Made by a program: the position numbers and the translations under genes
Shown: positions 8,096 through 44,571 of the stretch, piece after piece
How positions within the stretch are numbered: the first letter of the stretch is position 1
Layout: every line of letters begins with the position of its first letter
Source: a bacterium
GTDB lineage: Bacteria > BMS3Abin14
DNA length: 46,745 nucleotides
NCBI GenBank assembly: GCA_041559575.1
Contig: JBFFDD010000001.1
Location: forward strand, 1-46,745
Direction of reading: 5' to 3'
Notes under the pieces: model-generated
Databases searched by the model: none
What the model was told of the DNA's origin: nothing
What the model saw: only the letters and a program-made list of their open reading frames with translations

Positions 8096-8623
8096 ATGAA
8101 CAACTTCAAGAGCATTTTTCGCTCCGAGGGATCAGCTTTTCAGGGTAAAAGGGAGGTAAGATCAACGGTGAAACGCCGGGGAAAAGCCATATTGTGTTAC
8201 CGAAGCGAGTTCAACTGCGCCCAGGCGGTCCTGTCGGTTTTCGCGGAAGAATTCGGTGTCGACACAGAGACGGCCATGAGGATCGCCTGCGGCATGGGTG
8301 CCGGAATGGGACGCATGGCCGGCACGTGCGGTGCGGTGACCGGTGCGTTCATGGTCCTCGGTCTCAGGTACGGGATGACGGATCCCTCACGGCAGGAGGA
8401 CAAGGAGAGGACCTATGAGCTCGTCCGGCAGTTCAACCAGCGTTTCCTGGCCAGGAACGGATCGGCCCTGTGCAGGGATCTTCTGGGATGTGACGTCAGT
8501 ACACCGGAGGGTTTCGAGCAGGCAAAAAGCGGGAACCTCATGGAGGAGGTCTGCGAGCGGGTGGTGGGGGACGCGGTGGAGATAGTGGAAGAAATGCTGA
8601 AGGATCCCGATGAGGAACGCTAG
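8096..8623 (+). CDS. C_GCAxxG_C_C family protein
   Basis: Family signature FNCAQAVL ... ACGMGAGMGRMAGTCGAVTGA ... ALCRDLLGC. Confidence 0.85.
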   Translation: MNNFKSIFRSEGSAFQGKREVRSTVKRRGKAILCYRSEFNCAQAVLSVFAEEFGVDTETAMRIACGMGAGMGRMAGTCGAVTGAFMVLGLRYGMTDPSRQEDKERTYELVRQFNQRFLARNGSALCRDLLGCDVSTPEGFEQAKSGNLMEEVCERVVGDAVEIVEEMLKDPDEER

Positions 8624-8650
8624 AACCTATGGGTCCTTCAGCATTTCTGG

Positions 8651-8723
8651 GAACTGAGAACCGGGGACTGACAGTGAACTATCAGGTTCTTCAATCTCAG
8701 TTCTCTCGACTCAGTTCTGACTT
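8651..8723. repeat. Complementary heptad arms (GAACTGA / TCAGTTC)
   Basis: Left arm: gaactga gaaccgg ggactga cagtgaa. Right arm: tcaggtt..tcagttc tctcgac tcagttc. Confidence 0.8.
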
Positions 8724-9000
8724 ACCAATTCAGCAGCTCGAGGCACACTTGCAGAGCCCCCTGCTTTCCTTTTTAACTTTGACCAGTTTCATTCCCATTC
8801 ACCCCCTTTCAGCAAATTAATAGAGAAATTATAGCAGTTGTAAAGACCCTCTGTGAAGGGGCTTGGGAAAAAAATACTGGATATATAAAAAATCCAGCAT
8901 TCAATTAAAAAAAGTGACTTGCGGTTCTGTGGTAATTGTTTTGAGAAGATTTTGTAGCCTTGTTCCTGGGACCTGACCTCTGGACACAAGACACTTGAGA

Positions 9001-9771
9001 CTAGAAACTGATTTTAAACCCCCACTTCACCTCTGTGCCCTCGTCATCCGGGGAGTTAAAGACCCTCTCAGTGAATACCACCCGGCCGTTATCGTCGATG
9101 ATCAGAACCGTCGAAGCCCTCGTACCGTAGGTGGGGCTGGTAATAAAGATCGAAGACAGGACCCTCTCCAAGTCAACGCCCACGCCTGTTTCGGGAAGAA
9201 GATTGTCGGGCGGCCTCCGGGCGTCGGAGAGCAATCTCAGGAGAGATTCGGCCGAAGGGTTTCGTTCACTGTTCAGAACCTCCAAAAAAAGGTCCTTGCC
9301 CCTGGTCACCTTGGGCCATGGTGTATCGAGGAGGTGGTTGCTCAAGCCGTAGATGCCCGGTTGGAGTTTTACAGGCATTCCCTCCCGGTTGGAGTAGTAA
9401 AGGAGATTCTCTGTGTTGCCGGCCAGAAGATTAAAACCGTTATATCGGTCCCGGTTGAGATGCACTTCCTGAATGTACTGCTCCGGATCGACCTTTTCCC
9501 GCAGGTACTCAGCGACCATGAGTCCCCTTGACAGGAGGTGTTCCCGGGTTGATGAAGGGTCACGGAAATTGGTGATGCAGGCGAACCGCCCCTCCCTGGT
9601 GACCCCCAGCCAGGTCCCCCCCCATCGAACGTCCCTCCCCGCCAGGATCGCCGGCTCTTCTTTCCAGTATCCGGCCTGCTCGGTATCCCTTTCGTAGTAT
9701 TCGTCCCGGTTCGAGGCCAGGACAAGACGGAAGCCGGGATGGGACCTGTATGCGAAGAGGACGGTGCACAT
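9001..9771 (-). CDS. NRDE family protein (TANGO2/DUF833-like)
   Basis: N-terminus MCTVLFAYRSHPGFRLVLASNRDEYYER contains the eponymous NRDE motif after Cys2. Confidence 0.9.
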   Translation of the reverse strand: MCTVLFAYRSHPGFRLVLASNRDEYYERDTEQAGYWKEEPAILAGRDVRWGGTWLGVTREGRFACITNFRDPSSTREHLLSRGLMVAEYLREKVDPEQYIQEVHLNRDRYNGFNLLAGNTENLLYYSNREGMPVKLQPGIYGLSNHLLDTPWPKVTRGKDLFLEVLNSERNPSAESLLRLLSDARRPPDNLLPETGVGVDLERVLSSIFITSPTYGTRASTVLIIDDNGRVVFTERVFNSPDDEGTEVKWGFKISF

Positions 9772-9935
9772 GACATTCCCATTCTATCAGAGGACGGGCC
9801 TGCCCGGCGTGGTATTTCCCATGACACATGAAGGAAAAAACATTATTATGGTCGCCGGATCGCAAAGAAGGCGGGGTTGGGCGATGATAGCATGTTCCAG
9901 GGGACCGCAGGGGGGTCTGCCAACGGGAGGTGCAT

Positions 9936-10814
9936 ATGTCCAGGGTGTCCAGGGATGCCGTCCTTCGTGATCTGCCCATCAACGGCCAACAGGCATTCTC
10001 TACCCATGCCGGAAAATTCAGGGAAAGGATCAAAAAACAGCAGCTCAATATCCTCAGGCCGTTCGTACCCGTATTGAAGCATGTCCTCGAGCCGAACGAG
10101 GAGATCCTTCTGGCGTCCCGGGCCATTTCCCCTATCAGGATTGTCGAGGAGCTTACCACCGGTTGGCTCATCTTCCTTATCAGGCGCTGCGTCCTGGTGG
10201 TGACCAACAGGAGGGTCCTCCACTTTCCGACGACACCGGGTTTCTCTCCCCGTGATTCCCTTTCCCAGATCTCGTTCAACGACATCGAGAGTTTCAAGGC
10301 CGGCCGCAAGATCAAGCTGAAGTACAAGAGTGGAGAGGGTGAAAAATTCCACAGGGTCCTGAACGGAAAGAAGTTTGGGAGAACCCTGTCGGCTCTGACT
10401 AAAGGAAGTTCGGCCTCCACCCAGTTCCGAAGCCGGTACGCTGTCTGTCCCAAATGCACATCGGCTCTGGTGGAGGACCGTTACACCTGTTCTAAATGCC
10501 GGCTGGAGTTCAAGAACCCGCGGACAGCGAGGCTCTTCTCTCTCATCTTTCCCGGAGGAGGCTATTTCTACACCCGTCATCCCTTTCTCGGCATTGCCGA
10601 TGCCCTGGTGGAGCTCCCGCTCCTCGTGTTTACCCTCCTCTTTCTGATCGGGGCCGCAACGGGACACCCTCAGTTCGAGGGCCAGTGGATGACGGGAGGT
10701 ATCCTGGGAGGGGTCCTCCTGATCGAAAAGCTGGTGACCATCTACCACGCTGACCGGTTCGTCAGGGAATATATCCCGGTGGAGAGGGTCTTCCGGAAGA
10801 TCTCGGGGACATAG
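9936..10814 (+). CDS. Membrane protein with a bacterial PH-like domain and a zinc ribbon (hypothetical)
   Basis: GGGAGG lies 5 nt before the ATG at 9936. CPKC..(12)..CSKC forms a zinc ribbon, followed by two hydrophobic segments. The N-terminal part resembles a bPH domain, a weak call. Confidence 0.6.
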   Translation: MSRVSRDAVLRDLPINGQQAFSTHAGKFRERIKKQQLNILRPFVPVLKHVLEPNEEILLASRAISPIRIVEELTTGWLIFLIRRCVLVVTNRRVLHFPTTPGFSPRDSLSQISFNDIESFKAGRKIKLKYKSGEGEKFHRVLNGKKFGRTLSALTKGSSASTQFRSRYAVCPKCTSALVEDRYTCSKCRLEFKNPRTARLFSLIFPGGGYFYTRHPFLGIADALVELPLLVFTLLFLIGAATGHPQFEGQWMTGGILGGVLLIEKLVTIYHADRFVREYIPVERVFRKISGT

Positions 10815-14785: not shown

Positions 14786-15604
14786 TTATTCTTTCTCACC
14801 TTTCTCCGGCATCTCATTGATCAGTTTCAGAAGGTCTTCCGCTTTCCGGTAGCCAGGCGCCAGCCGGCCGTCGGGAAGGACGACGATAGGAGTGGAGCTG
14901 ATCCCCAGTTGACGGGCGAGGGCCATAGTCCGATCCACAGCGTCGGTGTCGCAGGTCGGGTCCGGTACCGGCTGGTCGGCGAAACTCGACTCGAGCAGTT
15001 CCAGGGAGTCCTCACAGACGATGCTCTTGGAGATCCTGTAGGCGTCAGGGTGAAGTTTCACCAGCGGCAGGAGCTTGATGTAGAAGACCAGGTCCGGATC
15101 CATCACCACCGCCCTCTTCAATTCCGGATGAAGCTTCGCGCAGTAGGGGCACTGGGGATCGGTGAACACGAATGCTTTCTTTCGGCCCTTGGGGTTACCC
15201 AGAACAAGGGCGTCCTGAATGGGAATGGTTGTGAGGTCCACCCGACGGAGGTTCATCAGTTTTTTCCTGGTGATGTTCTCCCGGTCGGCGATGTGGATGA
15301 CGTTACCGGAGATGACGTAGTTCTCCGAGAAGTCGATGTACAGGATGTGTTTATTCCCCTTGCTGGTGACCTCCACCGAGTACAGACCGGGTACCTGGGA
15401 GAAATCAACGTTATCGACGCTGTCCAATCCCGGCAGGTCCTTGAGGAGTTCAACCGCGGTCTCCTTCTCCATTCCGTGGCAGTCCCGGCACTGGCCCTCC
15501 CCACAGCCCTCGGCTCCGAAGGGGACAGCACGGTCGGGAAGCGCAAGGATCCCCGAAATGGAAAGGGTGATTATCAATATGGAAAAAACGATTATCTTCC
15601 GCAC
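14786..15604 (-). CDS. DsbC/DsbG-family thiol:disulfide interchange protein
   Basis: Signal peptide, a DsbC-like N-terminal domain, and a thioredoxin fold with FTDPQCPYCAKLH. An extra C-x4-C-x2-C-H cluster lies near the N-terminus. Confidence 0.85.
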   Translation of the reverse strand: MRKIIVFSILIITLSISGILALPDRAVPFGAEGCGEGQCRDCHGMEKETAVELLKDLPGLDSVDNVDFSQVPGLYSVEVTSKGNKHILYIDFSENYVISGNVIHIADRENITRKKLMNLRRVDLTTIPIQDALVLGNPKGRKKAFVFTDPQCPYCAKLHPELKRAVVMDPDLVFYIKLLPLVKLHPDAYRISKSIVCEDSLELLESSFADQPVPDPTCDTDAVDRTMALARQLGISSTPIVVLPDGRLAPGYRKAEDLLKLINEMPEKGEKE

Positions 15605-15870
15605 TGTAAATCCTTTTTAAACGCTCCTGAGATATTTTGCTCTAAATTGATATTTGGCGGGAAGCTCTAAGGTTTCTCGCCCGCTCGTCACGCCCGGGGC
15701 GTGATTCCCTTAACACGCCAGGACGCTGACAAATTCCCAATGAAATATTAGTTTATCGTGGTTTTCCTTGCGAGCTCTGCCTTTCCCGAGCTTGTCGAGG
15801 GTCGTCTTTGCGATAGCGAACTATTTTGTGCGCGATTTGGTGATGATCTCCAATTTACCATTTCCAATCT

Positions 15871-16716
15871 CTATTTTCCTTTCTTTAACTCCTCGTCTAT
15901 CATCCGTGAGAAACCTTCCAGGCTTCGATCGGATAAACGTCTGCCGTTGACGAAGATGGTCGGCGTTCCACGGACACCGCTCTGCTGTCCCTGCCTCATG
16001 TCACGGTTGATCAGATCGTTGATCTCCCGGCTATTTCTGTCGGCCTCGAAACGCTTCATGTCCAGGTTTAGGTCACCTGCGATCTGTTCGATGAGCTGTT
16101 CGTTGATCTTATTGTAGTTCTCAAAAAGCCGGTCATGGAACTCCCAGTATTTCCCCTGCTTGCCGGCAGCCATGGCGGCAGCGGCGGCAGGCCTGGCGAA
16201 CTTGTGGCTTCTTATGGGGAAATGGAGCTCAACGATCCTTATGTCTTTGGGGTATTTCTCGAGCACCTGCTCGAGTAGAGGCACCAGCCTCGCGCAGTAT
16301 GGTCACTGAAAGTCACTGAAGTAGGCGATCTCAACGGGGGCGTTTTTAGGGCCCTTGGACGGGGATCCCGATGTATCAAAGGTGTGAATCAGATCCAGGG
16401 CGACGATGAGGACATCCCTGCCGCTGCCTCCGGAAAGGATCAGCCTGGTCCCCACCTCGGAGAACTCCACCCTTTCGTAATCCCCGCCGGTTTCAATAGT
16501 CTGAACCTGTTGTCCGTTCCAGCTCAGGACCCTGATGACTCCACCGGTGGTGAGGACAAAGGTCCACTTGCCGTCCTGGGACACGGCTGTATCCAGGGCT
16601 TTGGAGCCAACATCGATCTTCTGGGTCGCTCTGAGCTCGAAAGCGGCGAAGGCAGGGGCGTTCAGGAAGGACGCGGCGACCAGGAAGAGGATCAACCGGG
16701 AAATGGGTTTTGCCAT
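15871..16716 (-). CDS. DsbA-family thiol:disulfide oxidoreductase, predicted selenoprotein (in-frame UGA at 16303-16305, active site U-P-Y-C)
   Basis: Two same-frame ORFs are joined by one TGA: ..VEIAYFSDFQ-TGA-PYCARLVPLLEQ.. The downstream half is a canonical DsbA fold (QGKYWEFHDRLF, GVRGTPTIFVNGR). AGGAGG lies 6 nt before the ATG at 16716. Signal peptide ..APAFA. Confidence 0.8.
16258..16291 (-). promoter_or_regulatory. Candidate SECIS hairpins downstream of the UGA
   Basis: On the mRNA, GAGGC-UGGU-GCCUC starts 11 nt after the UGA. It is followed by CUCGAG-CAGGUG-CUCGAG. These were identified by eye only. Confidence 0.45.
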
Positions 16717-17846: not shown

Positions 17847-17969
17847 TATTTGAGGTAAACTTTACCGGGCAATATGGCTGAATAATGGACCTGTCAGGGA
17901 GGGCTGGATACGTTGACAAAGATAGATTCATCCTGTATTTATCCTCTTTCGACCCGTAAGGGGGTTCCC

Positions 17970-18485
17970 ATGCTGATCAGGCTCGACGAAATACCCCCGG
18001 AGGGGCTGGATTTGGAGGTTCGGCTGGAACCGGAGGCTTCGGTTTCCCGGTCTTTTCGCTCAAAGGGGCCGTTCACCGGTTCCTTCAGGATCAGGAAGAT
18101 CGCCCCCGAGATCCTGGTCAAGGGGAGTGTGGAAGGCGAACTGATCCTTGAATGCAGCCGGTGCCTTAACGAATTCCAGTTTGGCATTCACGAGGATATC
18201 GATCTGGAACTCCGCCCCACGTCCCTGATCGAGGGCAGTGACGAGCTGGAGCTGGCCGATGGTGACCTGGACGTGGAGTTCTTCCAGGGCGATGCCCTGG
18301 ACCTGAACCACATCTTGGTGGAGCAGATCAGTCTCGCTTTGCCCATGAAGCCCCTGTGCTCAGAGGATTGCGACGGTCTCTGTTCCATTTGCGGACAGGA
18401 GCGCAAATTAGCGTCCTGTTCGTGCGATGAGCAGCGCGTTGATCTTAGATGGGAGGCCCTCAGGTCTCTCAAGGACAAGATTTAG
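17970..18485 (+). CDS. yceD: YceD/DUF177 family protein
   Basis: AAGGGGG lies before the ATG at 17970. Contains CSRCL...CSEDCDGLCSICGQ. It sits immediately upstream of rpmF, as is typical. Confidence 0.85.
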   Translation: MLIRLDEIPPEGLDLEVRLEPEASVSRSFRSKGPFTGSFRIRKIAPEILVKGSVEGELILECSRCLNEFQFGIHEDIDLELRPTSLIEGSDELELADGDLDVEFFQGDALDLNHILVEQISLALPMKPLCSEDCDGLCSICGQERKLASCSCDEQRVDLRWEALRSLKDKI

Positions 18486-18548: not shown

Positions 18549-18731
18549 ATGGCCGTACCGAAACAGAAAACCGCTAAATCCAGGACCCGGAGACGAAGAG
18601 CTCACGATGCCCTGAACACGCCGATGAACAGCACCTGCGAAAAGTGCGGAGAGGTCAAGATGCCTCACCGGGTGTGTTCCCATTGCGGCTATTACAGGGG
18701 CCGCAAGGTCATCGAAGTCGAAGAGGTTTAG
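18549..18731 (+). CDS. rpmF: 50S ribosomal protein L32
   Basis: MAVPKQKTAKSRTRRRRAH with a C-x2-C...C-x2-C zinc ribbon. Confidence 0.95.
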   Translation: MAVPKQKTAKSRTRRRRAHDALNTPMNSTCEKCGEVKMPHRVCSHCGYYRGRKVIEVEEV

Positions 18732-18760: not shown

Positions 18761-19876
18761 GTGAAAATCGCTGTTGATGCCATGGGAGGGGATTTCGCTC
18801 CCCAAGCAATTGTCGAAGGGGCTGTCCAGTCCGCCCTGGATTTCGAATGCAGGGTGATCCTTGTCGGCGACCGTGAGCTGATCGAGCCGCAGTTGAACCG
18901 GCTGTCCCCGCCCGATGGATTCGTACAGATTAAACACGCCTCAGAAGTGGTGAGGATGGACGAGGCCCCGCGAAGGGCACTGGCCAAAAAAAGGGACTCC
19001 TCCATTATCCGCACCTTCGAACTGGTCAAATCCGGTGAAGCGAACGCTGCTGTCTCAGCGGGCAATTCTGGCGCCGCGATGCTCGCCGGTATGTACGTCC
19101 TGGAACTGCTTCCCAATGTGGACAGGCCGTGCATCGGATCGGTTCTCCCCACCGGCAAGGGAAGGCAGACGGTCATGGCCGATGCCGGCGCCAATGTGGA
19201 CTGCAAACCCCACAACCTCATCCAGTTTGCCTATATGGCCAACGCTTTGGCCAGGTATTCCCTGGAGATCAGCAATCCGAAGGTTGGTCTGCTGAGTATC
19301 GGCGAGGAAGCGGGCAAGGGCAACGAGTCCGTCCGGACGACCTTCAATCTGTTGAAAAAGAGCGACCTGAACTTTGTCGGCAACATCGAAGGTGGAGATA
19401 TCTTTACCGGGAACGTCGATGTTATCGTGTGCGACGGTTTCGTGGGAAATGTGGCCCTGAAAACCGGTGAGGGTGTCGTTCAGATCCTGGCAAGGGCCCT
19501 CAAGGATGAGATCAAATCTTCAGCCCTCGCTCGTTTTGGATATATCTTCATGCGCCCGGCCCTCAAAAAATTCAAGCGTCGCTTCGACTACGACGAGTTT
19601 GGGGGAGCGCTTTTGCTTGGTATCGACGGTATCGGTCTCATCGCCCATGGGCATTCGAATCCCAAAGCCATTAAAAATGCCATCAAAATGGCGGACGATT
19701 TCGCTCGCAGCAGGATCGACAGGAGAATTAAAGAGGAGGTCGAATCCAGTGCCGATCTTAAGCCGAGTGTCGGCGACAAGGTCCATCAGGTCCTCGAAAC
19801 GCTCAAGGACAAGCGGATTGAAATGGACCTGAAAGGCGCGGGTGAACGGACGAGCAGGGTGACTTCCGAGGAGTGA
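18761..19876 (+). CDS. plsX: Phosphate acyltransferase PlsX
   Basis: MKIAVDAMGGDFAP.., VCDGFVGNVALKT. Sits in the rpmF-plsX-fabH context. GTG start. Confidence 0.95.
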   Translation: MKIAVDAMGGDFAPQAIVEGAVQSALDFECRVILVGDRELIEPQLNRLSPPDGFVQIKHASEVVRMDEAPRRALAKKRDSSIIRTFELVKSGEANAAVSAGNSGAAMLAGMYVLELLPNVDRPCIGSVLPTGKGRQTVMADAGANVDCKPHNLIQFAYMANALARYSLEISNPKVGLLSIGEEAGKGNESVRTTFNLLKKSDLNFVGNIEGGDIFTGNVDVIVCDGFVGNVALKTGEGVVQILARALKDEIKSSALARFGYIFMRPALKKFKRRFDYDEFGGALLLGIDGIGLIAHGHSNPKAIKNAIKMADDFARSRIDRRIKEEVESSADLKPSVGDKVHQVLETLKDKRIEMDLKGAGERTSRVTSEE

Positions 19877-19878
19877 CC

Positions 19879-20859
19879 ATGAGGACCCTTATTGCCGGGA
19901 CAGGTTCCTATCTGCCTGACCGGAGGCTCACAAACGCCGATCTGGTCAAGATGGTGGACACGAGTGAGGATTGGATCATCTCCCGGACCGGGATAAGGGA
20001 GCGGAGGATAGCGGCCCCTGAACAGGCCACCTCGGACCTGGCCATCGAGGCGGGGAAAAACGCCCTGGAGATGGCCGGCGTGGAGGCCGGGGAACTCGAC
20101 CTGATCATCGTGGCTACCTTGACCCCGGATTATCTGTTCCCCTCCACAGCCGGCCTCGTCCAGCGGGCACTGGGAGCCCACAAAGCGGCAGCTTTTGACC
20201 TGGAAGCGGCCTGCACCGGCTTCATCTACGCACTGTCCATCGGAGACCTGTTCGTCAGCTCAGGAAAATACAGCAAGGTCCTTGTTATTGGGGCGGAGGT
20301 CCTGTCGAGGTTTATCGACTGGGAAGACCGGAACACGTGCGTCCTGTTCGGCGATGGAGCGGGGGCGGCAGTTCTATTGCCCTCTGAAGATCCTGACAGG
20401 GGCATCGTTTCGACCCATCTTCACAACGACGGTCGAATGGCCGAACTCCTGTACGCGCCTGCCGGAGGATCCCGAAGACCGGCCGACGAGGAGGCCATTT
20501 CCCAGAAGCTCTACACCGTAAAAATGCAGGGCAACGAGGTTTTCAAGATAGCAGTCACCAAGCTCAGCGAGGTAGTCGATGAGGTCCTCAGCGCCAACGA
20601 TATGAAAGAGGAGGAGGTCGATCTGCTCGTTCCACATCAGGCCAACCTGAGGATCATTAAGGCAACCGCAAGAAAGCTCCGGCTCCCCATGGACAAGGTG
20701 ATCGTTACGGTTGACCGCCACGGAAACACCTCGGCAGCGTCCGTTCCCCTGGCTCTGGATGAGGCTGTCCGCACGAACCGGGTCAAGAGGGGTGATACAG
20801 TGCTCCTGGAGGCATTCGGCGGCGGGTTAACCTGGGGGGGAGCCCTCGTGCGGTGGTAA
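19879..20859 (+). CDS. fabH: 3-oxoacyl-ACP synthase III
   Basis: GTGSYLPDR.., active-site AACTGFIYAL, HQANLRI, GGGLTWG. GAGGAG lies 5 nt before the ATG. GTG 19873 is an alternative start. Confidence 0.93.
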   Translation: MRTLIAGTGSYLPDRRLTNADLVKMVDTSEDWIISRTGIRERRIAAPEQATSDLAIEAGKNALEMAGVEAGELDLIIVATLTPDYLFPSTAGLVQRALGAHKAAAFDLEAACTGFIYALSIGDLFVSSGKYSKVLVIGAEVLSRFIDWEDRNTCVLFGDGAGAAVLLPSEDPDRGIVSTHLHNDGRMAELLYAPAGGSRRPADEEAISQKLYTVKMQGNEVFKIAVTKLSEVVDEVLSANDMKEEEVDLLVPHQANLRIIKATARKLRLPMDKVIVTVDRHGNTSAASVPLALDEAVRTNRVKRGDTVLLEAFGGGLTWGGALVRW

Positions 20860-20864
20860 GCAAG

Positions 20865-20988
20865 ACTTCAAGATCATTAATTCAAAATTCAAGATTAAAA
20901 ATTCAAAATAAGCCTTTCGCAGGATTGAGAATTGTTTGCACCCCTGTTTGAACCTTTAACAGTTGACCTTTAACCTTGAATTCAAAAA
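20865..20988. repeat. Complementary heptad arms (ATTCAAA / TTTGAAC)
   Basis: Left arm: attcaaa attcaag attaaaa attcaaa. Right arm: tttgaac ctttaac agttgac ctttaac cttgaat. Confidence 0.8.
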
Positions 20989-21021
20989 GTTTCAGTGAGC
21001 AATGAGACGCCGGAGGGAATA

Positions 21022-22182
21022 ATGGATTATTTTTTGACCGATGAACAGCAGGAAATTCGGGACCTTGCTCGACAGATCGCCGAGGAGAGGATCGTTCCGG
21101 TCCGGGAGGAACTGGACGAGAAAGAGGAGTTCCCCACCGAGGTCATGAAGGCCTGCGCGCAGTCGGATCTGTTCACCATTCCCGTTCCGGAGGAGTACGG
21201 AGGTCTCGGGGGTGGTGTGATGGAGATGTGCCTGGCTGTTGAGGAACTCTCCAAGGCATGCCTGGGTGTTTCTGTGACCTACGCCGCGACTTTCCTGGGG
21301 GCCTATCCCATCATGCTCTTCGGCAGCGATGATCAGAAAGCCAGATACCTGCCGGACATCGCCTCCGGTGAGAAGTTGGGCGCCTTTGGTCTCACGGAGG
21401 CCAATGCGGGGAGTGACGCCGGGGGGATCCGGACGACAGCTGTCAAGGAGGGGGATTCCTACGTCCTCAACGGGACAAAGCAGTGGATCACCAACGCCGG
21501 AGAAGCGGACATCTACACCGTCATCGCCCTGACTGACAAATCCAAAGGCCCCCGCGGCGCCTCGGCCTTCATCGTCGAGAAGGATACACCGGGTTTTTCC
21601 TTCGGTAAGAAGGAGAACAAAATGGGCATCCGGGCCTCCGCCACTCGAGAGCTGATCTTCGAGAACTGTCGAATCCCGGCGGAAAATCTGATCAGCAGGG
21701 AGGGGATGGGTTTCATGGTGGCCATGAAGACCCTTGACATGTCCCGACCCGGGATAGCATCCCAGGGTGTTGGTGTGGCGCAGGGTGCCCTGGACGTTTC
21801 GGTAAACTACGCGCGGGAACGGCACCAGTTCGGACAGCCCATTATCGGGTTCCAGGCGATCCAGCACATGCTGGCGGACATGGCTACCAAAATTGAAGCG
21901 GCGCGTGCCCTGACCTACTCTGTGGCCAGGTTCATCGACAGCGGGGCGAAGGATATCTCCAAGGTCTCGGCTATGACCAAGCTTTACGGAGGAGATATCG
22001 CCGTCCAGGTCACGACTGACGCCGTTCAGGTCCTGGGAGGGTATGGCTACATGAGGGAATACCCGGTGGAGAAGATGATGCGGGACGCCAAGATCCTCCA
22101 GATCTACGAGGGGACTAATCAAATCCAGCGAAACGTCATCGGCGCGGCGCTGATCAAGGAATATGCCCAGAAGAAAAGCTGA
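21022..22182 (+). CDS. Acyl-CoA dehydrogenase (butyryl-CoA dehydrogenase-like)
   Basis: GLTEANAGSDAGG, KQWITN, and the catalytic-base motif QIYEGTNQIQR. GGAGGG lies before the ATG at 21022. Confidence 0.92.
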   Translation: MDYFLTDEQQEIRDLARQIAEERIVPVREELDEKEEFPTEVMKACAQSDLFTIPVPEEYGGLGGGVMEMCLAVEELSKACLGVSVTYAATFLGAYPIMLFGSDDQKARYLPDIASGEKLGAFGLTEANAGSDAGGIRTTAVKEGDSYVLNGTKQWITNAGEADIYTVIALTDKSKGPRGASAFIVEKDTPGFSFGKKENKMGIRASATRELIFENCRIPAENLISREGMGFMVAMKTLDMSRPGIASQGVGVAQGALDVSVNYARERHQFGQPIIGFQAIQHMLADMATKIEAARALTYSVARFIDSGAKDISKVSAMTKLYGGDIAVQVTTDAVQVLGGYGYMREYPVEKMMRDAKILQIYEGTNQIQRNVIGAALIKEYAQKKS

Positions 22183-22277
22183 AGTGTAAAAGAGTGACGG
22201 TGAGCCGGTGTGTCGGGGTCTTTCTCCGTTACACCGTTTCTCCGGCACTCCGACACTGATAATCAATGAGGATTGTG

Positions 22278-23063
22278 ATGAATATCGTCGTCTGTATCAA
22301 GCAGGTCCCCGACACCACCAAGGTCAAGATCGACCCTGAGACCAACACGCTCGTGCGGGAAGGGGTGGAGAGCATCATCAACCCCTTCGATCTTTATGCC
22401 ATCGAGGAAGGTGTCCGACTCAGGGAAGCCCAGGGAGGCACCGTCAAGGTCATCACTATGGGGCCTCCACAGGCTGAGTCCGCCCTGCGGGAGGCGATCT
22501 CTCTGGGGGCCGATGAGTCAATCCTGGTCAGCGACCGGGCCTTTGCGGGATCCGACACATGGGCCACCGCCTACACTCTGGCGGCTGCTATTCGCACCAT
22601 AGGTCCGGTGGACCTGATCATATGCGGCAAACAGGCCATTGACGGTGATACAGCCCAGGTCGGTCCGTCCCTCGCTGACCAGCTGGAGATCCCCTTCGTA
22701 GCCTTTGTCCGGAGGGTAAGAGAGGTTGGTGAGGACGCTATGGTTGTGGAGCGGATGTTCGAAGAGGGGTACGAGGTTGTTCGGCTGCCCCTCCCCGGCC
22801 TCATGACGGTGGTCAAGGAGATCAACGAGCCTCGTCTCCCGTCCCTGAAGGGAAAGATGAGGGCCAAGAAGGCAGAGATCCTGAGAATTGAACGGTCAGC
22901 CATAGAGGTCGAGGACGTCCACCTGGGTCTCGACGGATCTCCCACCCGGGTGGTTAAGATCTTCTCTCCGGAGCTGAAGAAGGCGGGTGAGAAGTGGCAG
23001 GAGGATCCGGATGTGATGGCCGAAAAGCTGGTGGCCAATCTCAGGGCGCAGAAGATCATATAA
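22278..23063 (+). CDS. etfB: Electron transfer flavoprotein beta subunit (bifurcating-type signature)
   Basis: MNIVVCIKQVPDT.. and CGKQAIDGDTAQVGP. ATG 22266 is an alternative start. Confidence 0.9.
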   Translation: MNIVVCIKQVPDTTKVKIDPETNTLVREGVESIINPFDLYAIEEGVRLREAQGGTVKVITMGPPQAESALREAISLGADESILVSDRAFAGSDTWATAYTLAAAIRTIGPVDLIICGKQAIDGDTAQVGPSLADQLEIPFVAFVRRVREVGEDAMVVERMFEEGYEVVRLPLPGLMTVVKEINEPRLPSLKGKMRAKKAEILRIERSAIEVEDVHLGLDGSPTRVVKIFSPELKKAGEKWQEDPDVMAEKLVANLRAQKII

Positions 23064-23287
23064 AGCAGCTCCAAGTTCCACGTTTCATGTTCCAAGTAAA
23101 AAATCTATAAACTTAAGCTCTAAATATCGAATTATGACCATATTTTATTTTCTTTCTTTAAGGTGCAGGAGAATGGGTGAGATACAAGGCCGTCACGCCG
23201 TGGGCGTGATCGAGGATTTCCGACGACTGAGAACGCAGTAGATTGCCCATTATCGTGCACCGCATTCAACTATAAACGAGGATATAT

Positions 23288-24493
23288 ATGGCAGTAGTAG
23301 TCATCAAGGATATGTGCAACGGATGCGAGGCATGTCTCGATTCCTGTCCCTACGAGGCCATCGAGATGGTCGACGGGCTCGCCTATATCAATGAGGCGTG
23401 CACCATGTGTATGGCCTGCCTGGAAGCATGTCCCCTGGAGGCCATCATCAGTGAGGAGACGGAAACGGTTCTGCCCGACCTGGACAAGGACGCCTACTCC
23501 GGGGTGTGGGTCTTTGCTGAGCAGCGGCAGGGGAATGTTTCCACAGTGGTGATGGAGCTCCTCGGCGCAGGGCGGAAGTTGGCCGACGACCTCGGAGAGA
23601 GGCTGACGGCCATCCTCCTCGGACACGATATGGAGTCGGCGGCACGGGACCTTGTCCACCACGGTGCCGACGAGGTCGTTTATGTTGACGACCCTCTTCT
23701 GGCCAACTTCAATGACGGCCCTTACGCTTCGGTCCTGTCCGACCTGATCAGGGAGAGAAAGCCGTCCATCGTCCTGGCCGGCGCAACCTTCATGGGGAGA
23801 TCCTTCATTCCCATGGTCGCATCGAAGGTGGACACGGGGTTAACAGCCGACTGCACATCCCTGGCCATTGATCCGGAAACGCGTGACCTTCTCCAGACTC
23901 GCCCCGCCTTTGGCGGCAACATCATGGCCACCATTATCTGCCCCCGTCACCGGCCTCAAATGGCCACTGTCAGGCACAAGGTTCTCTCCCCCGCAGTGGA
24001 GGACATCCATCACAAAGGTGAGGTCCACATTATCCAGGGTTTCGACGGCACCCGGCTGGATCAGCGGACGGAGGTCCTCGAGGTGGTCGAAGAGGTCATG
24101 GACACCGTTAACCTCGCAGAGGCCGACATCATCGTGTCCGGAGGGCGGGGAGTGGGGAGCCCGGATGGTTTCAAACTCATCGAGGAACTGGCCCTCGAAC
24201 TGGGAGGAGCGGTGGGCGCTTCACGGTCGGTGGTGGACTCGGGGTGGATACCCTATTCGCACCAGGTTGGTCAGACGGGCAAGACGGTCCAGCCCAAAAT
24301 CTACATCGCCTGCGGGATCTCGGGGGCTGTCCAGCACCTTGCCGGAATGCAGGCTTCAGATGTTATCATCGCCATCAACAAGGACGGCGACGCACCCATT
24401 TTCGACGTGGCCAATTACGGTCTGGTGGGAGACCTGTTCGAGATCATTCCGCAGATCATTCAATCAGTAAGGAGCAAGAGGGCCGTGTCATGA
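23288..24493 (+). CDS. etfA: Electron transfer flavoprotein alpha subunit with an N-terminal 2x[4Fe-4S] ferredoxin domain
   Basis: [12 protein letters not shown] and [12 protein letters not shown], followed by the EtfA body ([19 protein letters not shown]). Confidence 0.9.
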
Positions 24494-25434
24494 AGCTTGC
24501 GCTTGTCTTTCCGGGGCAGGGTTCCCAGTTCGTCGGCATGGGAAAAGATCTGGCCCAATGGTCCCCGGTGGCCAGGGAGACCTTCCAGGAGGCTGACGAT
24601 ACCCTGAGCTTCGCCCTCACTCGACTTATCTTCGAGGGGCCGGAGGCAGATCTCACACTCACACAGAATACTCAGCCCGCCATTCTCGCTGTCAGTGTGG
24701 CGGCTTTCCGGGTTATGGGCTCCCAACTGCCCGTCGAACCCGCTTTTGTTGCCGGTCACAGTCTTGGGGAGTACTCTGCCCTGGTTGCAGCGCAGAGCCT
24801 CTCTTTCAAGGATGCCATAATGGCGGTCAGGGAGAGGGGAAAGGCGATGCAGGAGGCGGTTCCGGCAGGCAAGGGATCCATGGCCGCTCTCATGGGGATG
24901 GAAAGGGATGAGATCATCGCCCTGTGTGAGGAGGCAGCTGGTGATGGTGGAGTGGTCTCGCCGGCCAATTTCAACTCACCCGGTCAGATCGTCATCGCCG
25001 GGACGAAGGAGAATGTCCTCAGGGCAGTGGAGATTTTCAAGGAGAGGGGGGGGAAGCGGGCGGTTGAACTCCCGGTAAGCGCTCCCTTCCACTGCAGCCT
25101 CATGGAGCCAGCCGCCAAACGCGTGGAGGAGGTCCTCGCAGATATCCTCATTGACAGTCCAAAGACGGTTCTGATAAACAACGCTGAAGCGAAACCTCTG
25201 TCCGCAGCTGAAGATATCAGGCCCTCTCTGATCCGTCAGGTAACGTCACCCGTTCTCTGGGAGGACTCCATCCGGATCATCGCTGACGCCGGGGTGGGAG
25301 GGTTCCTGGAAATCGGTCCCGGCAAGGTGCTTTCCGGCCTTGTCAAGAGAATTCATCGGGAGGCCGAAGTGCAGACCTTCGGCAGACCGGAGGAACTGGA
25401 CGCGGTGGCTGTCATGATGGACAAAGGGGATTAG
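24490..25434 (+). CDS. fabD: Malonyl-CoA:ACP transacylase
   Basis: [18 protein letters not shown].., GHSLGEYSAL. ATGA overlap with etfA. The ORF-track extension to 24244 lies inside etfA. Confidence 0.93.
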   Translation: MKLALVFPGQGSQFVGMGKDLAQWSPVARETFQEADDTLSFALTRLIFEGPEADLTLTQNTQPAILAVSVAAFRVMGSQLPVEPAFVAGHSLGEYSALVAAQSLSFKDAIMAVRERGKAMQEAVPAGKGSMAALMGMERDEIIALCEEAAGDGGVVSPANFNSPGQIVIAGTKENVLRAVEIFKERGGKRAVELPVSAPFHCSLMEPAAKRVEEVLADILIDSPKTVLINNAEAKPLSAAEDIRPSLIRQVTSPVLWEDSIRIIADAGVGGFLEIGPGKVLSGLVKRIHREAEVQTFGRPEELDAVAVMMDKGD

Positions 25435-25492: not shown

Positions 25493-26230
25493 ATGGTTGA
25501 GAAGAGCGTCGCCATAGTCACGGGGGGAGGGCAGGGCATCGGGAAGGCTGTTCTCCTGGATCTGGCCGGATCCGGAATCGATGTCGTTGCCGCGGATGTC
25601 AACGAAAATGCAGCTGCCGAAACCGCCAGGGAGGCGGAATCCCGGGGTGTGAAGGCCCTGGGGCTGGGAGTTGATGTGTCCAGCGCCGAGGACGTTAACG
25701 GGATGATCGACTCCACTCTCGAGGCCTTCGGCAGGATCGATTATCTGGTCAACAACGCTGGAATCACCAGGGACAGCCTGCTCATGAGGATGGATGACGA
25801 CGCCTGGAGGACCGTCATCGACATCAATCTCACCGGGACCTATCTCTGTTCCAAGGCGGTCGTTAAGACTTTGATGAAACAGCGCCATGGCAGGATCGTC
25901 AACATCTCCTCTGTGGTCGGTGCCATGGGCAACGCCGGCCAGACCAACTATGCCGCATCCAAGGCGGGAGTGATCGGTTTTACCAAATCCCTGGCCAGGG
26001 AATTAGCTCCTCGGAATATCACAGTCAACGCCATAGCCCCGGGATTTATCAAGACCGCCATGACGGACGCCCTTCCTGAAAAGGCCCGTGATGAACTGGT
26101 GGCCCTTATCCCGTCTCAGCGTCTCGGCGAGCCAGAGGACGTCGCGGCAGCCGTCCGGTTCCTGTTGTCGGATGGAGCTTCCTACGTCACCGGCCAGGTG
26201 ATCCACGTCAACGGCGGGATGTATATGTAA
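25493..26230 (+). CDS. fabG: 3-oxoacyl-ACP reductase
   Basis: VTGGGQGIGKA, NNAGIT, YAASKAG, VNAIAPGFI. Confidence 0.93.
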   Translation: MVEKSVAIVTGGGQGIGKAVLLDLAGSGIDVVAADVNENAAAETAREAESRGVKALGLGVDVSSAEDVNGMIDSTLEAFGRIDYLVNNAGITRDSLLMRMDDDAWRTVIDINLTGTYLCSKAVVKTLMKQRHGRIVNISSVVGAMGNAGQTNYAASKAGVIGFTKSLARELAPRNITVNAIAPGFIKTAMTDALPEKARDELVALIPSQRLGEPEDVAAAVRFLLSDGASYVTGQVIHVNGGMYM

Positions 26231-26411: not shown

Positions 26412-26645
26412 ATGGACGTAGCCAGCAAAATAAACGAGATCATCGCCGAACAGCTCAACCAGGACGCCGACGGCATCGACGCCAATGCCCATTTTGTCAA
26501 CGATCTGGGGGCCGACTCCCTGGACGTGGTGGAACTCGTCATGGCCTTCGAGGAGGCCTTTGACCTCGAGATTCCCGACGAGGACGCGGAGAAGATCCAG
26601 ACTGTCCAGGACGCCATAAACTATATTCAGGGAAAACAGGGGTAG
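26412..26645 (+). CDS. acpP: Acyl carrier protein
   Basis: [18 protein letters not shown] contains the phosphopantetheine Ser motif. AAGGAGG ribosome-binding site. Confidence 0.95.
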
Positions 26646-26653
26646 GCAGCGAC

Positions 26654-27895
26654 GTGAAACGAAGAGTCGTTGTCACCGGTCTTGGGGGGATATCACCCCT
26701 CGGTCTGGATGTCAGTGAGACGTGGCAGGGACTTCTGGCCGGCAGGTCAGGTGTCGGGCCGATCACAAAATTCGACCCTTCGGACCATGCCTCGAAGATC
26801 GCCGCTGAGGTCAAGGGTTTCGATGCGGAAAAGCGAATCGACCGCAAAGAGCTCAAAAAGATGGATCTTTTTATCTCCTACGCCATCTTCGCATCCTTCG
26901 AGGCCCTGGAACAGTCCGGACTGGTTATCGATGACCAGAACGCGGAACGGGTCGCTGTGGTGGTTGGCACCGGTATGGGCGGTCTGCCATATATCGAGCA
27001 GTACGCGGAGACCCTCTTCACCAAGGGTCCGAGAAGGGTGTCCCCTTTCTTTATCCCCATGGTGATCGCCAATCTGGCCTCGGGTCACGTATCCATCCTC
27101 ACGGGAGCCAAAGGTCCGAACAGCTGCGTGGTGACCGCGTGCGCCACCGGGACGCACTGCATCGGCGAAGCCCTTCGGATGATCCAGTACGGAGATGCGG
27201 ATGCCGCCATCGCCGGTGGAACCGAATCGACCATCACAGCCCTTGGCTTCGCAGGTTTCAACGCCATGCGCGCTCTTTCCACCCGGAACGATGAACCTGA
27301 GAGGGCCAGCCGCCCCTTCGACAAGGGCAGGGACGGATTTGTCATGGGTGAGGGAGCCGGGGTCCTTATCCTGGAGGAGATGGAGTCCGCCATGGCCCGC
27401 GGCGCAAATATCCTGGCGGAGGTAGCCGGGTTCGGAATGTCCGGGGACGCCTATCACATCACAGCCCCTCCCGAGGGAGGGACGGGAGCGGCCCAGTGCA
27501 TGAGGAGCACCCTGAAGGACGCCGGTCTCGCCCCCGATGACGTCAGCTACATCAACGCCCACGGCACCAGCACGCAGTTCAACGATCTGTTTGAGACTCA
27601 GGCCATTAAAACAGTCTTCGGGGACCACGCCTACAAACTGGCCGTGAGCTCCACGAAATCAATGATCGGCCATCTGCTCGGGGCTGCCGGCGGGGTGGAG
27701 GCCGTTATTTCGGTCAAATCGGTGATGGAGGACCGCGTCCCACCGACGGTAAATTACGAGGACCCGGACCCGGACTGCGATCTGGATTACGTTCCCAACG
27801 AAGCCAGGGAAACGTCGGTAGAGGTGGCCCTGTCCAATTCCTTTGGATTCGGAGGGACCAATGCCTGCCTCGCTTTCCGGAAATTTCGCCCCTGA
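26654..27895 (+). CDS. fabF: 3-oxoacyl-ACP synthase II
   Basis: RRVVVTGLG.., active-site [34 protein letters not shown] start. Confidence 0.95.
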
Positions 27896-40373: not shown

Positions 40374-40850
40374 ATGGATATCAGTGGAATCATGAAAATC
40401 CTGCCCCACAGGTACCCCTTCCTCCTGGTGGATCGAATTGAGGAGGTTGTTCCGAACCAGAGGGCCGTAGGGATAAAAAACGTTACCATCAACGAGAATT
40501 TCTTTCTCGGTCACTTCCCCGGCCATCCGGTCATGCCCGGGGTACTGATCATCGAATTTATGGCCCAGGTGGCCGGGATCCTCTCCTTTGTTTCCGAATC
40601 GGAATCCACGGATCTCGACCTGGAAGGCAGGATCATCTACTTCATGTCCATCGACAAGGTCAAATTCCGAAAACCGGTGGTTCCAGGGGATCAGTTAAGG
40701 GGTGAGGTCAGGATCCTCAAATCGCGCCGCAAAATCGCCAGTTACGCCGGAAAGGCATATGTGGGGGATGATCTGGTCTGCGAGGCAGAGATGAAAGCCA
40801 TGCTCATCGACGCCGACCAGGCCGATGTTCCAACTGGAGAAAGCGACTGA
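40374..40850 (+). CDS. fabZ: 3-hydroxyacyl-ACP dehydratase FabZ
   Basis: ILPHRYPFLLVDRI..FFLGHFPGHPVMPGVL. Confidence 0.95.
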   Translation: MDISGIMKILPHRYPFLLVDRIEEVVPNQRAVGIKNVTINENFFLGHFPGHPVMPGVLIIEFMAQVAGILSFVSESESTDLDLEGRIIYFMSIDKVKFRKPVVPGDQLRGEVRILKSRRKIASYAGKAYVGDDLVCEAEMKAMLIDADQADVPTGESD

Positions 40851-40852
40851 TC

Positions 40853-41644
40853 ATGGGATCCGAGCGGGGCACAAATATCGATCCTCGGGCGGTGGTCCAC
40901 CAGGGGGCTCAGATCGATCAGGGTGCTCGAGTCGGTCCTTTCTCAGTGATAGGGCCTCATGTGAAGATCGGTTCCGGGACGGTGGTGGACTCCCACGTGT
41001 TCATCGACGGCAGGACAACCATTGGCAGGGAAAACCGGATCTTTCCCTTCGCGTCGGTTGGGGCCCAGCCCCAGGATCTCAAATACAATGGTGAGGAGAG
41101 TGAAGTTGTCATTGGCGACCGTAATCAGATCCGGGAATGCGCCACCATCCACCGGGGAACGGAAGGTGGAGGAATGATCACTCGGGTGGGGAATGGCAAC
41201 CTGTTCATGGCCTATACCCATGTGGCCCATGACTGTGTCATCGGAAACGATGTCGTGATGGCCAACGCCGCCACCCTTGGAGGTCACGTGACCATCAGCG
41301 ACGGAGCTATCATCGGGGGGTTGGCCGGGATCCATCAATTCTGCCGTATCGGATCTCTGGCAATGATCGCCGGCGGCGCGGTTGTGGTTATGGATGTTCC
41401 GCCCTTTACCCAGGCGCAGGGTGACCGGGCCAGGTTGTTTGGCCTGAATCTCATCGGACTTAAAAGGAAAGGAATCTCCCCGAAGAGCATCGACGCATTG
41501 AAATTAACCTACAAGATCATTTTCCGGCTGGACCTCAAGCTGGAGGATGCCCTGGTGAAGGTTGAACAGGAAGTTGTCGCCTGTCAGGAAGTCCGGGAAA
41601 TGATCGATTTCATACAGACCTCGGAAAGGGGCATCACCCGGTGA
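40853..41644 (+). CDS. lpxA: Acyl-ACP--UDP-N-acetylglucosamine O-acyltransferase
   Basis: Hexapeptide repeats, PQDLKYNGE, THVAHDCVIGN, RLFGLNLIGLKR, C-terminal SERGITR. Confidence 0.93.
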   Translation: MGSERGTNIDPRAVVHQGAQIDQGARVGPFSVIGPHVKIGSGTVVDSHVFIDGRTTIGRENRIFPFASVGAQPQDLKYNGEESEVVIGDRNQIRECATIHRGTEGGGMITRVGNGNLFMAYTHVAHDCVIGNDVVMANAATLGGHVTISDGAIIGGLAGIHQFCRIGSLAMIAGGAVVVMDVPPFTQAQGDRARLFGLNLIGLKRKGISPKSIDALKLTYKIIFRLDLKLEDALVKVEQEVVACQEVREMIDFIQTSERGITR

Positions 41645-42507
41645 CCGTCCCTTCAGAGAAGATCGGCCTCCTGGCCGGCCTCAGCGACCTGCCCCTCGAG
41701 GTCGTCCGAGCGGTGGAGAGGGCAGGGACACCCCTCTTCGTGGCTGCGTTCAAGGGCGCCGCCGACCCGGCCATTGAGGTGACGGGGCGGGATGTCAAGT
41801 GGTTCAGTATAGGACGCCTGCAGGCCCTTCTCGACGGACTCAGGGCGTCCGGTGCCAGGGATCTCGTCCTGGCAGGAAAGCTCCCCCATGAAGTCCTCTT
41901 CTCCAGCGGTGATTTCGATGACCGACTGGTAGACTTTCTCAATTCCCTCCCCGACAGGCGGGGATCCTCCATCCTGGGAGGTTTCGTCGATCTGCTGATC
42001 TCGGAAGGGTTCCGTGTAAGGCAGCTCATCGAAACGGTTCCCGAGTTGGTACCCGAAGCGGGGCACCTGGCAGGACCACTTCCCACGGAGGCCCAGATGG
42101 AGGATGCCAGATTCGGTTGGCGGATCGCCAAGACCATAGCAGGTTTGGACATTGGACAGACCGTGGTCGTGAAGGACCTCGCGGTGGTCTCCGTGGAGGG
42201 CATGGAGGGCACCGATGAAACGGTCACCAGGGCGGGATCCATAACCGGAGGTCAGAACATCGTGGTTAAGGTCTCCAGCCCGAACCATGATTTCCGTTTC
42301 GACGTCCCAACCGTTGGGCCCGGCACGGTTTCGTCCCTGTCAGCTTCCGGGGGAGGTGTACTGGCCGTGGAGGCTGGGCGATGCTTTCTCATGGGAGGGG
42401 ATAACCTGTTCAGGGAGTGTGCGGAAAAGGCTGTCTCACTGGTTGCCCTGGACGAAACCGATATCAGCCAGGGGCAGCGTCCAGTTGGTGATGATACCCG
42501 AGCATAA
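41641..42507 (+). CDS. lpxI: UDP-2,3-diacylglucosamine diphosphatase LpxI (DUF1009)
   Basis: IGLLAGLSDLPLEV.., DIGQTVVVKD..VSVEGMEGTDETV. GTGA overlap with lpxA. Confidence 0.85.
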   Translation: MTVPSEKIGLLAGLSDLPLEVVRAVERAGTPLFVAAFKGAADPAIEVTGRDVKWFSIGRLQALLDGLRASGARDLVLAGKLPHEVLFSSGDFDDRLVDFLNSLPDRRGSSILGGFVDLLISEGFRVRQLIETVPELVPEAGHLAGPLPTEAQMEDARFGWRIAKTIAGLDIGQTVVVKDLAVVSVEGMEGTDETVTRAGSITGGQNIVVKVSSPNHDFRFDVPTVGPGTVSSLSASGGGVLAVEAGRCFLMGGDNLFRECAEKAVSLVALDETDISQGQRPVGDDTRA

Positions 42508-44560: not shown

Positions 44561-44571
44561 CGATGATCCTG

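Follow-up and report, generated by a model that had tools for sequence, protein, structure and literature searches.

A butyryl-CoA dehydrogenase/Etf-like module in a bacterial fatty-acid-synthesis operon: a candidate electron-bifurcating enoyl-ACP reductase

What are genes resembling a fermentative flavoprotein complex doing in the middle of an operon for fatty-acid synthesis? The question is raised by a stretch of 46,745 nucleotides from a bacterium of the BMS3Abin14 lineage (GenBank assembly GCA_041559575.1, contig JBFFDD010000001.1, positions 1 to 46,745; this whole stretch is hereafter termed the window). Between 17.9 and 27.9 kb, its plus strand carries the gene order yceD-rpmF-plsX-fabH-[ACAD-etfB-etfA]-fabD-fabG-acpP-fabF (Table 1), in which ACAD denotes an acyl-CoA dehydrogenase-family flavoprotein and etfB and etfA the small and large subunits of an electron-transferring flavoprotein (Etf). 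The original prediction that the plsX-fabH-fabD-fabG-acpP-fabF block is interrupted by three genes was borne out by domain and profile matches. These three genes, hereafter the module, appear from their sequences to resemble the butyryl-CoA dehydrogenase (Bcd)/Etf complex with which fermenting bacteria conserve energy. We hold with good confidence that the clade of ACADs to which the window protein belongs works in fatty-acid or lipid synthesis. The more specific proposal, that the module is an electron-bifurcating enoyl-ACP reductase (ENR; ACP, acyl carrier protein) of elongation in type II fatty-acid synthesis (FAS II), has in our judgement an even chance of being correct.

The genes of the operon lie on one strand and are separated by short gaps or overlap, with intergenic distances of -4 nt for plsX/fabH, 162 nt for fabH/ACAD, 83 nt for ACAD/etfB, 224 nt for etfB/etfA and -4 nt for etfA/fabD. 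At the last of these junctions fabD begins with ATG at 24490-24492 and etfA ends with TGA at 24491-24493, and the ATGA overlap noted in the original prediction could thus be verified at 24490-24493. No terminator-like sites were found on the plus strand between fabH and fabD, the module genes have GC contents (0.58-0.60) and third-position GC contents (GC3, 0.74-0.75) like those of the neighbouring genes, and the linkage is kept across lineages, as described below. The best explanation is that the module has long belonged to a FAS II operon and is transcribed together with it. An assembly artefact was rejected since the identical gene order occurs in a closed 2.78-Mb genome (CP070719.1, L003; L numbers designate the loci fetched for comparison) and in other independent assemblies. 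A chance insertion or recent transfer was likewise rejected in view of the neighbour-like composition, the repetition of the order in independent assemblies and the clade-wide linkage. A 424-aa antisense open reading frame (ORF; 20992-22266, minus strand), which spans the ACAD gene entirely and exceeds it in length, was rejected on Pfam evidence; it is an artefact of high GC3 that naive longest-ORF pickers would take.

The linkage was assessed in 80 loci from species-representative genomes, retrieved with EtfA as query, and in 80 metagenome loci, retrieved with the ACAD as query. The eleven proteins of the window were mapped onto the fetched loci by tblastn, and loci within 4 kb of FAS II genes were scored as fab-linked. 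The window ACAD fell into a cluster of 97 sequences sharing at least about 65% identity with it (unweighted pair group method with arithmetic mean), which we refer to as the clade. Fab linkage was found for 68 of the 81 informative loci of this cluster (13 were informative and unlinked, and 16 further loci were uninformative), as compared to 1 of 39 for all other Etf-linked ACAD clusters, which consist mostly of Firmicutes Bcds beside ferredoxin-domain Etfs. Among the genomes retrieved with EtfA, 9 of 12 loci with an ACAD at least 65% identical to that of the window were fab-linked, versus 1/55 when identity was below 55%.

The order found in the window, plsX-fabH-ACAD-etfB-etfA-fabD, is one of several fab-linked orders. 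The others include plsX-ACAD-fabD-fabG-acpP-fabF, plsX-fabH-ACAD-fabD, plsX-ACAD-fabG, plsX-ACAD-etfBA-fabG, fabF-(rnc)-ACAD-etfBA, plsX-fabG-ACAD-acpP-fabF...etfBA and, away from other fab genes, mdh-ndk-ACAD-etfBA-fabD. A metagenome-assembled genome (MAG) of Nitrospirota (L126) has exactly the gene order of the window, and fab linkage was also observed in the Desulfarculales, namely in Desulfarculus (L022) and the isolate Dethiosulfatarculus sandiegensis (L050), in Syntrophobacterales (L073), in Fermentibacterota (L058, L062 and L076) and in 'Deltaproteobacteria' MAGs such as L150, whose 90%-identity cluster has 484 members; a Schekmanbacteria MAG (L008) displays etfA-fabD linkage. The loci with fab linkage thus belong to Nitrospirota, Desulfobacterota, Fermentibacterota and unclassified MAGs. 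A chance insertion is ruled out by a linkage that is specific to one clade and recurs in different gene orders and phyla. The synteny check proposed with the original prediction therefore came out in its favour: in relatives the module remains within or next to fab operons, and this holds most of all for the ACAD.

It is the ACAD and not the Etf that constantly accompanies the fab genes. The original prediction was right about the fab linkage of the module and missed that the ACAD shows this linkage most consistently. The gaps resemble those within operons, with medians over the loci of 14 nt between ACAD and fabD (27 loci), 89 nt between fabH and ACAD and 102 nt between plsX and ACAD. In the same loci the ACAD is conserved at 68-76% identity, versus 41-53% for PlsX, 39-59% for FabD and 50-67% for FabF. 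One coherent sublineage of the clade has the order plsX-ACAD-fabD-fabG-acpP-fabF, the ACAD standing without etf genes in the usual place of fabH (loci in Table 1); in loci related to these the order is plsX-fabH-ACAD-fabD.

Some clade members were observed in other settings. In Thermodesulfovibrionales/Dissulfurispira (L167, 10001-11809; L001, 8001-9158) a solitary clade ACAD with 76% identity to that of the window follows pmbA/tldD, and in L167 it precedes a CDP-alcohol phosphatidyltransferase gene (phospholipid head-group). Locus L168 (10001-18223) has the order mdh-ndk-ACAD-etfB-etfA-fabD, its etfA including the ferredoxin domain, directly followed by four soluble NiFe hydrogenase genes (Fer4_22, FAD/NAD-binding, small and large subunits); the module is still tied to fabD there although the remaining fab operon is located elsewhere.

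The ACAD gene starts with an ATG preceded by GGAGGG. Its product carries three ACAD Pfam domains and, as had been predicted, the catalytic motif QIYEGTNQIQR, which was located at residues 360-370 (22099-22131) with the catalytic Glu of YEGT at residue 363. When compared to solved structures, the protein was closest to C. difficile Bcd (5OL2_C, 430 bits), followed by actinobacterial ACADs (411 bits), A. fermentans Bcd (406 bits) and CarC (339 bits), while AnaB (4IRN) and TcsD (6CXT) gave 224 bits. It reached no NCBIfam equivalog cut-off: all 23 matches were below, the best being AcrC with 471.5 bits versus 640. The models for ACADs acting on carrier proteins were among those whose cut-offs were not reached (MbtN, 90 bits versus 700; RedW, 273 versus 650; PigA, 259 versus 500).

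Against each of the five bifurcating Etfs of solved structure (5OL2, 4KPU, 6FAH, 7KOE and 7QH2), EtfB scored 230-243 bits, including 243 bits to 5OL2_B and 238 bits to CarD, versus at most 102 bits against canonical ETF-beta (human, Paracoccus and Methylophilus). It carries CGKQAIDGDTAQVGP at residues 120-134 (22623-22667) and the GKQAIDGDTAQVG motif, and GKQAxDGDTAQxG is carried by 37 of the 39 EtfBs of clade loci; by these sequence characters EtfB is of the type binding the bifurcating beta-FAD and NADH. The ATG at 22278 (MNIVVC...) may be its true start. EtfA consists of an Etf domain (PF01012, 163 bits) and a C-terminal FAD-binding domain (PF00766, 130 bits), preceded by a ferredoxin domain (approximately residues 1-60) whose two CxxCxxCxxxC motifs are encoded at 23315-23350 and 23399-23434. 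It matches CarE (6FAH_A) over its full length (residues 1-394, 446 bits) with all eight Cys aligned, and its core matches 5OL2_A with 303 bits. The strict CxxCxxCxxxCP pattern is found twice in 12 of the 31 EtfAs of clade loci, and in the remaining 19 the second motif mostly differs just by the missing final Pro. Homology thus identifies the Etf as one of bifurcating type with a CarE/LctC-like ferredoxin extension, paired with a Bcd-like ACAD. The original prediction had assigned EtfB to the bifurcating group and an extra 2x[4Fe-4S] domain of CarE/LctC type to EtfA; both assignments stand, and the Etf of the window groups with bifurcating Etfs, not with canonical ones.

Which enoyl thioester could such a complex act on? 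Among the clustered unexplained ORFs of fab-linked loci, neither thiolase, hbd, crt or acyl-CoA synthetase nor other beta-oxidation genes recurred, the recurrent neighbours being rnc, rpiB, glyA, a dCMP-deaminase-like gene, nrdR and rib genes. The sole evident source of an enoyl thioester is therefore FabZ, that is, FAS II acting on ACP, and the product of the fabZ gene of the window would be the dehydratase supplying enoyl-ACP. FabI- or FabK-like genes were not found in the 46.7-kb window by tblastn (E<10) or among the other long ORFs by Pfam, FabV not being directly searched; with E. coli FabI as tblastn query, FabG alone was matched, and a FabK query gave no match. The original prediction of a cluster free of enoyl-ACP reductase genes accordingly holds for FabI- and FabK-like genes, which the direct search covered. 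Since these operons otherwise encode no enoyl reductase and the Etf that goes with the ACAD belongs to the kind that oxidises NADH and reduces ferredoxin, we propose that the module carries out enoyl reduction.

We infer an ACP-bound substrate, with the range of its chain lengths, together with the reductive direction, actual bifurcation and the ENR role itself. In the proposed reaction the ACAD subunit would hold the substrate-reducing FAD, EtfB the NADH-oxidising, bifurcating FAD and EtfA the electron-transferring FAD, and the fused 2x[4Fe-4S] domain would serve as the low-potential exit to ferredoxin (Fd). The overall reaction would be 2 NADH + Fd(ox) + trans-2-enoyl-ACP -> 2 NAD+ + Fd(red) + acyl-ACP, with enoyl-ACP coming from FabZ, and the module would act instead of, or alongside, a reductase of the FabI, FabK, FabL or FabV kind. 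The redox potentials are about -10 mV for the enoyl/acyl thioester couple, about -320 mV for NAD and about -420 mV for ferredoxin. From these established values we calculate that the forward reaction is exergonic by about 40 kJ/mol and that the reverse costs about +40 kJ/mol; a reductive role is favoured because the reverse reaction is not energetically feasible. Each round of elongation would yield reduced ferredoxin, and the drop of roughly 300 mV would not be wasted. The enoyl-reduction role, which the original prediction had offered as a speculative reading, is strengthened by the clade-wide linkage and the bifurcating Etf and stays a proposal, no ACP adaptation being visible in the ACAD. 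As for the broader claim of a widespread, undescribed structural class of ENR, in which an ACAD-fold flavoprotein driven by a bifurcating ferredoxin-domain Etf would provide reduced ferredoxin in every elongation cycle of many strict anaerobes (Nitrospirota, Desulfobacterota, Fermentibacterota and others), we regard it as possible, at slightly less than an even chance.

With C. difficile Bcd-EtfAB (5OL2) the module shares the three-gene composition of ACAD, EtfB and EtfA, the catalytic Glu and the DGDTAQVG motif of EtfB. Unlike the clostridial genes, it lies in a FAS II operon and not in a crt-bcd-etfBA-hbd butyrate operon. Its ACAD falls into a clade of its own, whose members share at least 65% identity with one another but no more than about 55% with clostridial Bcd and which has residues like those of MCAD (medium-chain acyl-CoA dehydrogenase; W155, TNQIQR), its EtfA bears an extra ferredoxin domain and its proposed substrate is enoyl-ACP. 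The N-terminal 2x[4Fe-4S] domain of EtfA is shared with the caffeyl-CoA reductase CarCDE of A. woodii (6FAH) and the lactate dehydrogenase-Etf complex LctBCD (7QH2); in contrast to these systems, which serve caffeate respiration and lactate oxidation, the context of the module is fatty-acid synthesis, and its ACAD matches Bcd (430 bits) better than CarC (339 bits). The reaction proposed for the module is identical to that of FabI/FabL, FabK and FabV, whereas its fold, ACAD plus Etf, is unrelated to theirs (FabI/FabL are short-chain dehydrogenases/reductases and FabK is an FMN enzyme of the NMO fold). These known ENRs use NAD(P)H alone; the module, composed of three subunits with three FADs and two Fe-S clusters, would couple to ferredoxin. 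If it is an ENR, it represents a new structural class. The module occupies the same operon slot as fabK in Clostridium, where the order is fabH acpP fabK fabD (PMC2700279). H. pylori FabX (7E1Q) is a flavin/[4Fe-4S] acyl-ACP dehydrogenase-isomerase of FAS II (PMC8626469) and resembles what is proposed for the module in being a flavoprotein with Fe-S-mediated electron transfer at the enoyl/acyl-ACP step; it differs by its NMO fold, its oxidative direction and its role in unsaturated-fatty-acid synthesis. Lastly, MbtN, the prolyl-PCP dehydrogenases RedW/PigA (PCP, peptidyl carrier protein), AnaB and TcsD demonstrate that substrates tethered to phosphopantetheine are within reach of the ACAD fold, although they are distant relatives of the module ACAD, function in secondary metabolism and lack a bifurcating Etf.

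Several observations weigh against an ENR role. Judged by sequence, the ACAD looks like an ordinary member of the acyl-CoA dehydrogenases: it retains the LDxxR motif, which contacts the CoA adenine in MCAD, and the 24 positions specific to the clade are mostly in ancestral MCAD-like states (W155, K351 and G65, and also TNQIQR). An ACP-docking signature was sought in the charge and isoelectric point of the ACAD and not detected: the latter is 6.8 versus 6.4 for clostridial Bcds, and the charge barely differs. The sequence comparison also took in the pocket region (helix E, residues 80-93), which pointed neither towards nor away from a C4 acyl-CoA substrate. Among the best 150 of 1.84 billion representatives searched, no ACAD was fused to ACP or any FAS domain, and long ACAD matches corresponded to tandem ACADs, ACAD-ETFalpha-rubredoxin and ACAD-glyoxalase proteins. 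In the sublineage without etf genes, the flanks, retrieved to at most 10 kb, showed no Etf, and the electron donor would have to be encoded elsewhere; additionally, the 13 informative but unlinked clade members, for example that of Dissulfurispira thermophila, are located away from fab genes. Gram-negative fabI usually lies outside the fab operon, and because of this an operon free of ENR genes is weak evidence. Among the 168 fetched loci and the window we found no FabI and two FabK-like genes (L141 and L059), a survey that at 10-20 kb per genome has almost no power to establish absence.

These two genes also count against the proposed role. In L141, an operon with ACAD-etfBA has an NMO-family gene (15183-16169, plus strand) inserted between its acpP and fabF genes. 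Its product has a FabK-like TIM barrel (179 bits to T. maritima FabK) and a four-Cys insert (RCVACLKHCKKDFC). The C-terminal part matches the [4Fe-4S] subdomain of FabX with 50.7 bits, versus 29 bits for FabK, and three of the four Cys are in register. The protein may make unsaturated fatty acids as an enzyme of FabX type and not be a reductase, or it may be an intermediate form between FabK and FabX. In L059, a plain FabK-like NMO gene (8137-9147, minus strand) is convergent to the etfA of a clade ACAD-etfBA module; no other fab gene is nearby, and an MTHFR-like gene adjoins it. The module can thus coexist with NMO-family FAS enzymes, and these two cases leave its role undecided.

A rival explanation is an ordinary short-chain Bcd-EtfAB acting on CoA thioesters in fermentation or beta-oxidation, which would be part of the operon just for co-regulation of lipid turnover or through a historical accident after which the entire block spread vertically or horizontally. 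The ACAD is most similar to the C. difficile Bcd complex and the A. fermentans enzyme, its best NCBIfam match, albeit below the cut-off, is to acryloyl-CoA reductase subunits, and its CoA-type motifs are intact while an ACP signature is absent; some clade members are located away from fab genes, and FabK-like genes stand alongside the module in L059 and L141. We nevertheless consider this explanation unlikely. A linkage that is specific to the clade (68/81 versus 1/39) and persists through several rearrangements and phyla is unexpected for hitch-hiking genes, the ACAD remains in the operon even where the Etf is gone, and it lies very close to fabD (median distance 14 nt). Thiolase, hbd, crt and acyl-CoA synthetase genes, moreover, are not recurrent nearby. 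Bcd-Etf could also supply a primer, making butyryl-CoA or another short acyl-CoA for FabH to condense with malonyl-ACP; the first cycle of reduction would then run on CoA and conserve energy. This would agree with the position of the module, which immediately follows fabH both in the window and in the nearest relatives, and with the short-chain, CoA-specific appearance of the ACAD. It appears very improbable, however, given that thl, hbd and crt, which would form crotonyl-CoA, are not linked, that many operons have the order plsX-ACAD-fabD without an adjoining fabH and that a butyryl primer brings no evident product advantage.

The module could also work in the opposite direction, as a FabX-like acyl-ACP dehydrogenase/isomerase for anaerobic synthesis of unsaturated fatty acids that would convert acyl-ACP to the trans-2-enoyl and then the cis-3 form and pass electrons to the Etf. 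Alpha,beta-dehydrogenation is the native chemistry of ACADs, 2,3-enoyl isomerisation is a documented side activity of these enzymes, and operons without an adjacent Etf would suit an enzyme requiring little net electron flow. Carrier-protein-thioester enzymes of the ACAD fold do exist (the MbtN and RedW/PigA models match weakly), and FabX is an example of a 'backtracking' flavoenzyme at work in FAS II (PMC8626469). Against this, an NADH-linked bifurcating Etf with a ferredoxin domain fits reduction and would be strongly endergonic when run backwards, the FabX-like NMO protein of L141 with its four-Cys C-terminal region, encoded in one operon with the module, would already cover such a role, and the module is not accompanied by a dedicated FabB-like condensing enzyme. 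We therefore regard a FabX-like role as quite unlikely, and return to the ENR proposal in considering what the finding would mean, after describing the remaining features of the locus.

Table 1. Features of the operon and related elements. Positions refer to the window unless locus identifiers are given.
Feature	Position	Strand	Evidence or remarks
yceD (DUF177)	17913..18485	+	PF02620, 101 bits; usual first gene of rpmF-plsX-fab cluster
rpmF (ribosomal protein L32)	18549..18731	+	ORF translation; 90-93% identity to annotated L32 gene of L003 and L009
plsX	18761..19876	+	PF02504, 364 bits; 4-nt overlap with fabH
fabH (KAS III, a beta-ketoacyl-ACP synthase)	19873..20859	+	NCBIfam NF006829, 464 bits versus cut-off 249
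ACAD-family flavoprotein, 386 aa	21022..22182	+	PF02771, PF02770, PF00441
etfB (small Etf subunit)	22266..23063	+	PF01012
Candidate structured RNA element	23162..23261	+	Inside 224-nt spacer 23064-23287
etfA (large Etf subunit) with N-terminal 2x[4Fe-4S] domain	23288..24493	+	PF00037 (Fer4), PF01012, PF00766
fabD	24490..25434	+	TIGR00128, 360 bits versus cut-off 261
fabG	25493..26230	+	PF13561, PF00106
acpP	26412..26645	+	77-aa ORF, DSLD motif; 91-95% identity to PP-binding gene of L003 and L009
fabF	26654..27895	+	PF00109, PF02801
fabZ (in lpxD-fabZ-lpxA, 12 kb downstream)	40374..40850	+	PF07977, 122 bits
Metagenome loci of the ACAD sublineage without etf genes	L111, L122-L125, L128, L133, L140, L142, L145, L157, L159, L161, L163, L164		

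Two intergenic regions of the module have features of their own. The spacer between fabH and the ACAD gene (20860-21021) is AT-rich and contains, within its 162 nt, four TTCAARAT repeats and two ACCTTTAAC repeats, just upstream of the ACAD ribosome-binding site; the spacer is only loosely or partly conserved in L003 and L009 and could be an internal promoter or operator. The spacer between etfB and etfA contains the candidate structured RNA element, which is present once in the window, is conserved at the nucleotide level in L009 (approximately 9860-9985) and is absent from the closer relative L003. RNAalifold gave 27 pairs in a long-range stem with three compensatory double changes and none broken (fold z-score -2.5). 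Neither the window nor this spacer had a match in Rfam, and a conserved small ORF was rejected as an explanation of the element since the reading frames of the window and L009 copies differ.

Among distant homologues of the ACAD, P0155, P0160, P0133 and P0168 consist of an ACAD fused to an ETF-alpha FAD domain in one polypeptide, with an additional C-terminal rubredoxin in P0155, and P0208 combines an ACAD with a glyoxalase-fold domain. Further downstream in the window, two LpxA-like acyltransferase genes (40853-41644 and 42287-43282, plus strand) were found, as well as, next to lpxB, genes for a DegT-family aminotransferase and a Gfo/Idh/MocA oxidoreductase (43406-46642, minus strand). This set resembles the GnnA/GnnB arrangement for lipid A containing a 2,3-diamino sugar.

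Full-text literature searches returned no description of ACAD/Etf genes in fab operons, their coverage of subscription papers being incomplete and a prior description therefore possible. As an ENR, the module would be a case of known machinery, a complex of the Bcd-EtfAB/CarCDE type, recruited to a new pathway. We know of no earlier case of flavin-based electron bifurcation in a core anabolic pathway; if the proposal is true, this would be the first, and fatty-acid synthesis would return low-potential electrons, one reduced ferredoxin per C2 unit, to organisms living near the thermodynamic limit. Should the ENR reading be wrong, the link between this ACAD clade and FAS II, which holds throughout the clade and across several phyla, would still need explaining. 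The enoyl-reduction step is structurally the most varied step of bacterial fatty-acid synthesis and a major drug target (triclosan, isoniazid, FabI/FabK inhibitors), and an ENR class built from Bcd and Etf would, if confirmed, change the prediction of susceptibility and of pathway completeness for large groups of anaerobes. Genes of the clade are currently labelled butyryl-CoA, 'AidB-like' or cyclohexene-carbonyl-CoA dehydrogenases and metagenome reconstructions probably count them as evidence of butyrate metabolism, beta-oxidation or the metabolism of aromatic compounds. If the proposal is true, many of the 'butyryl-CoA dehydrogenase' genes of MAGs would be genes of lipid synthesis.

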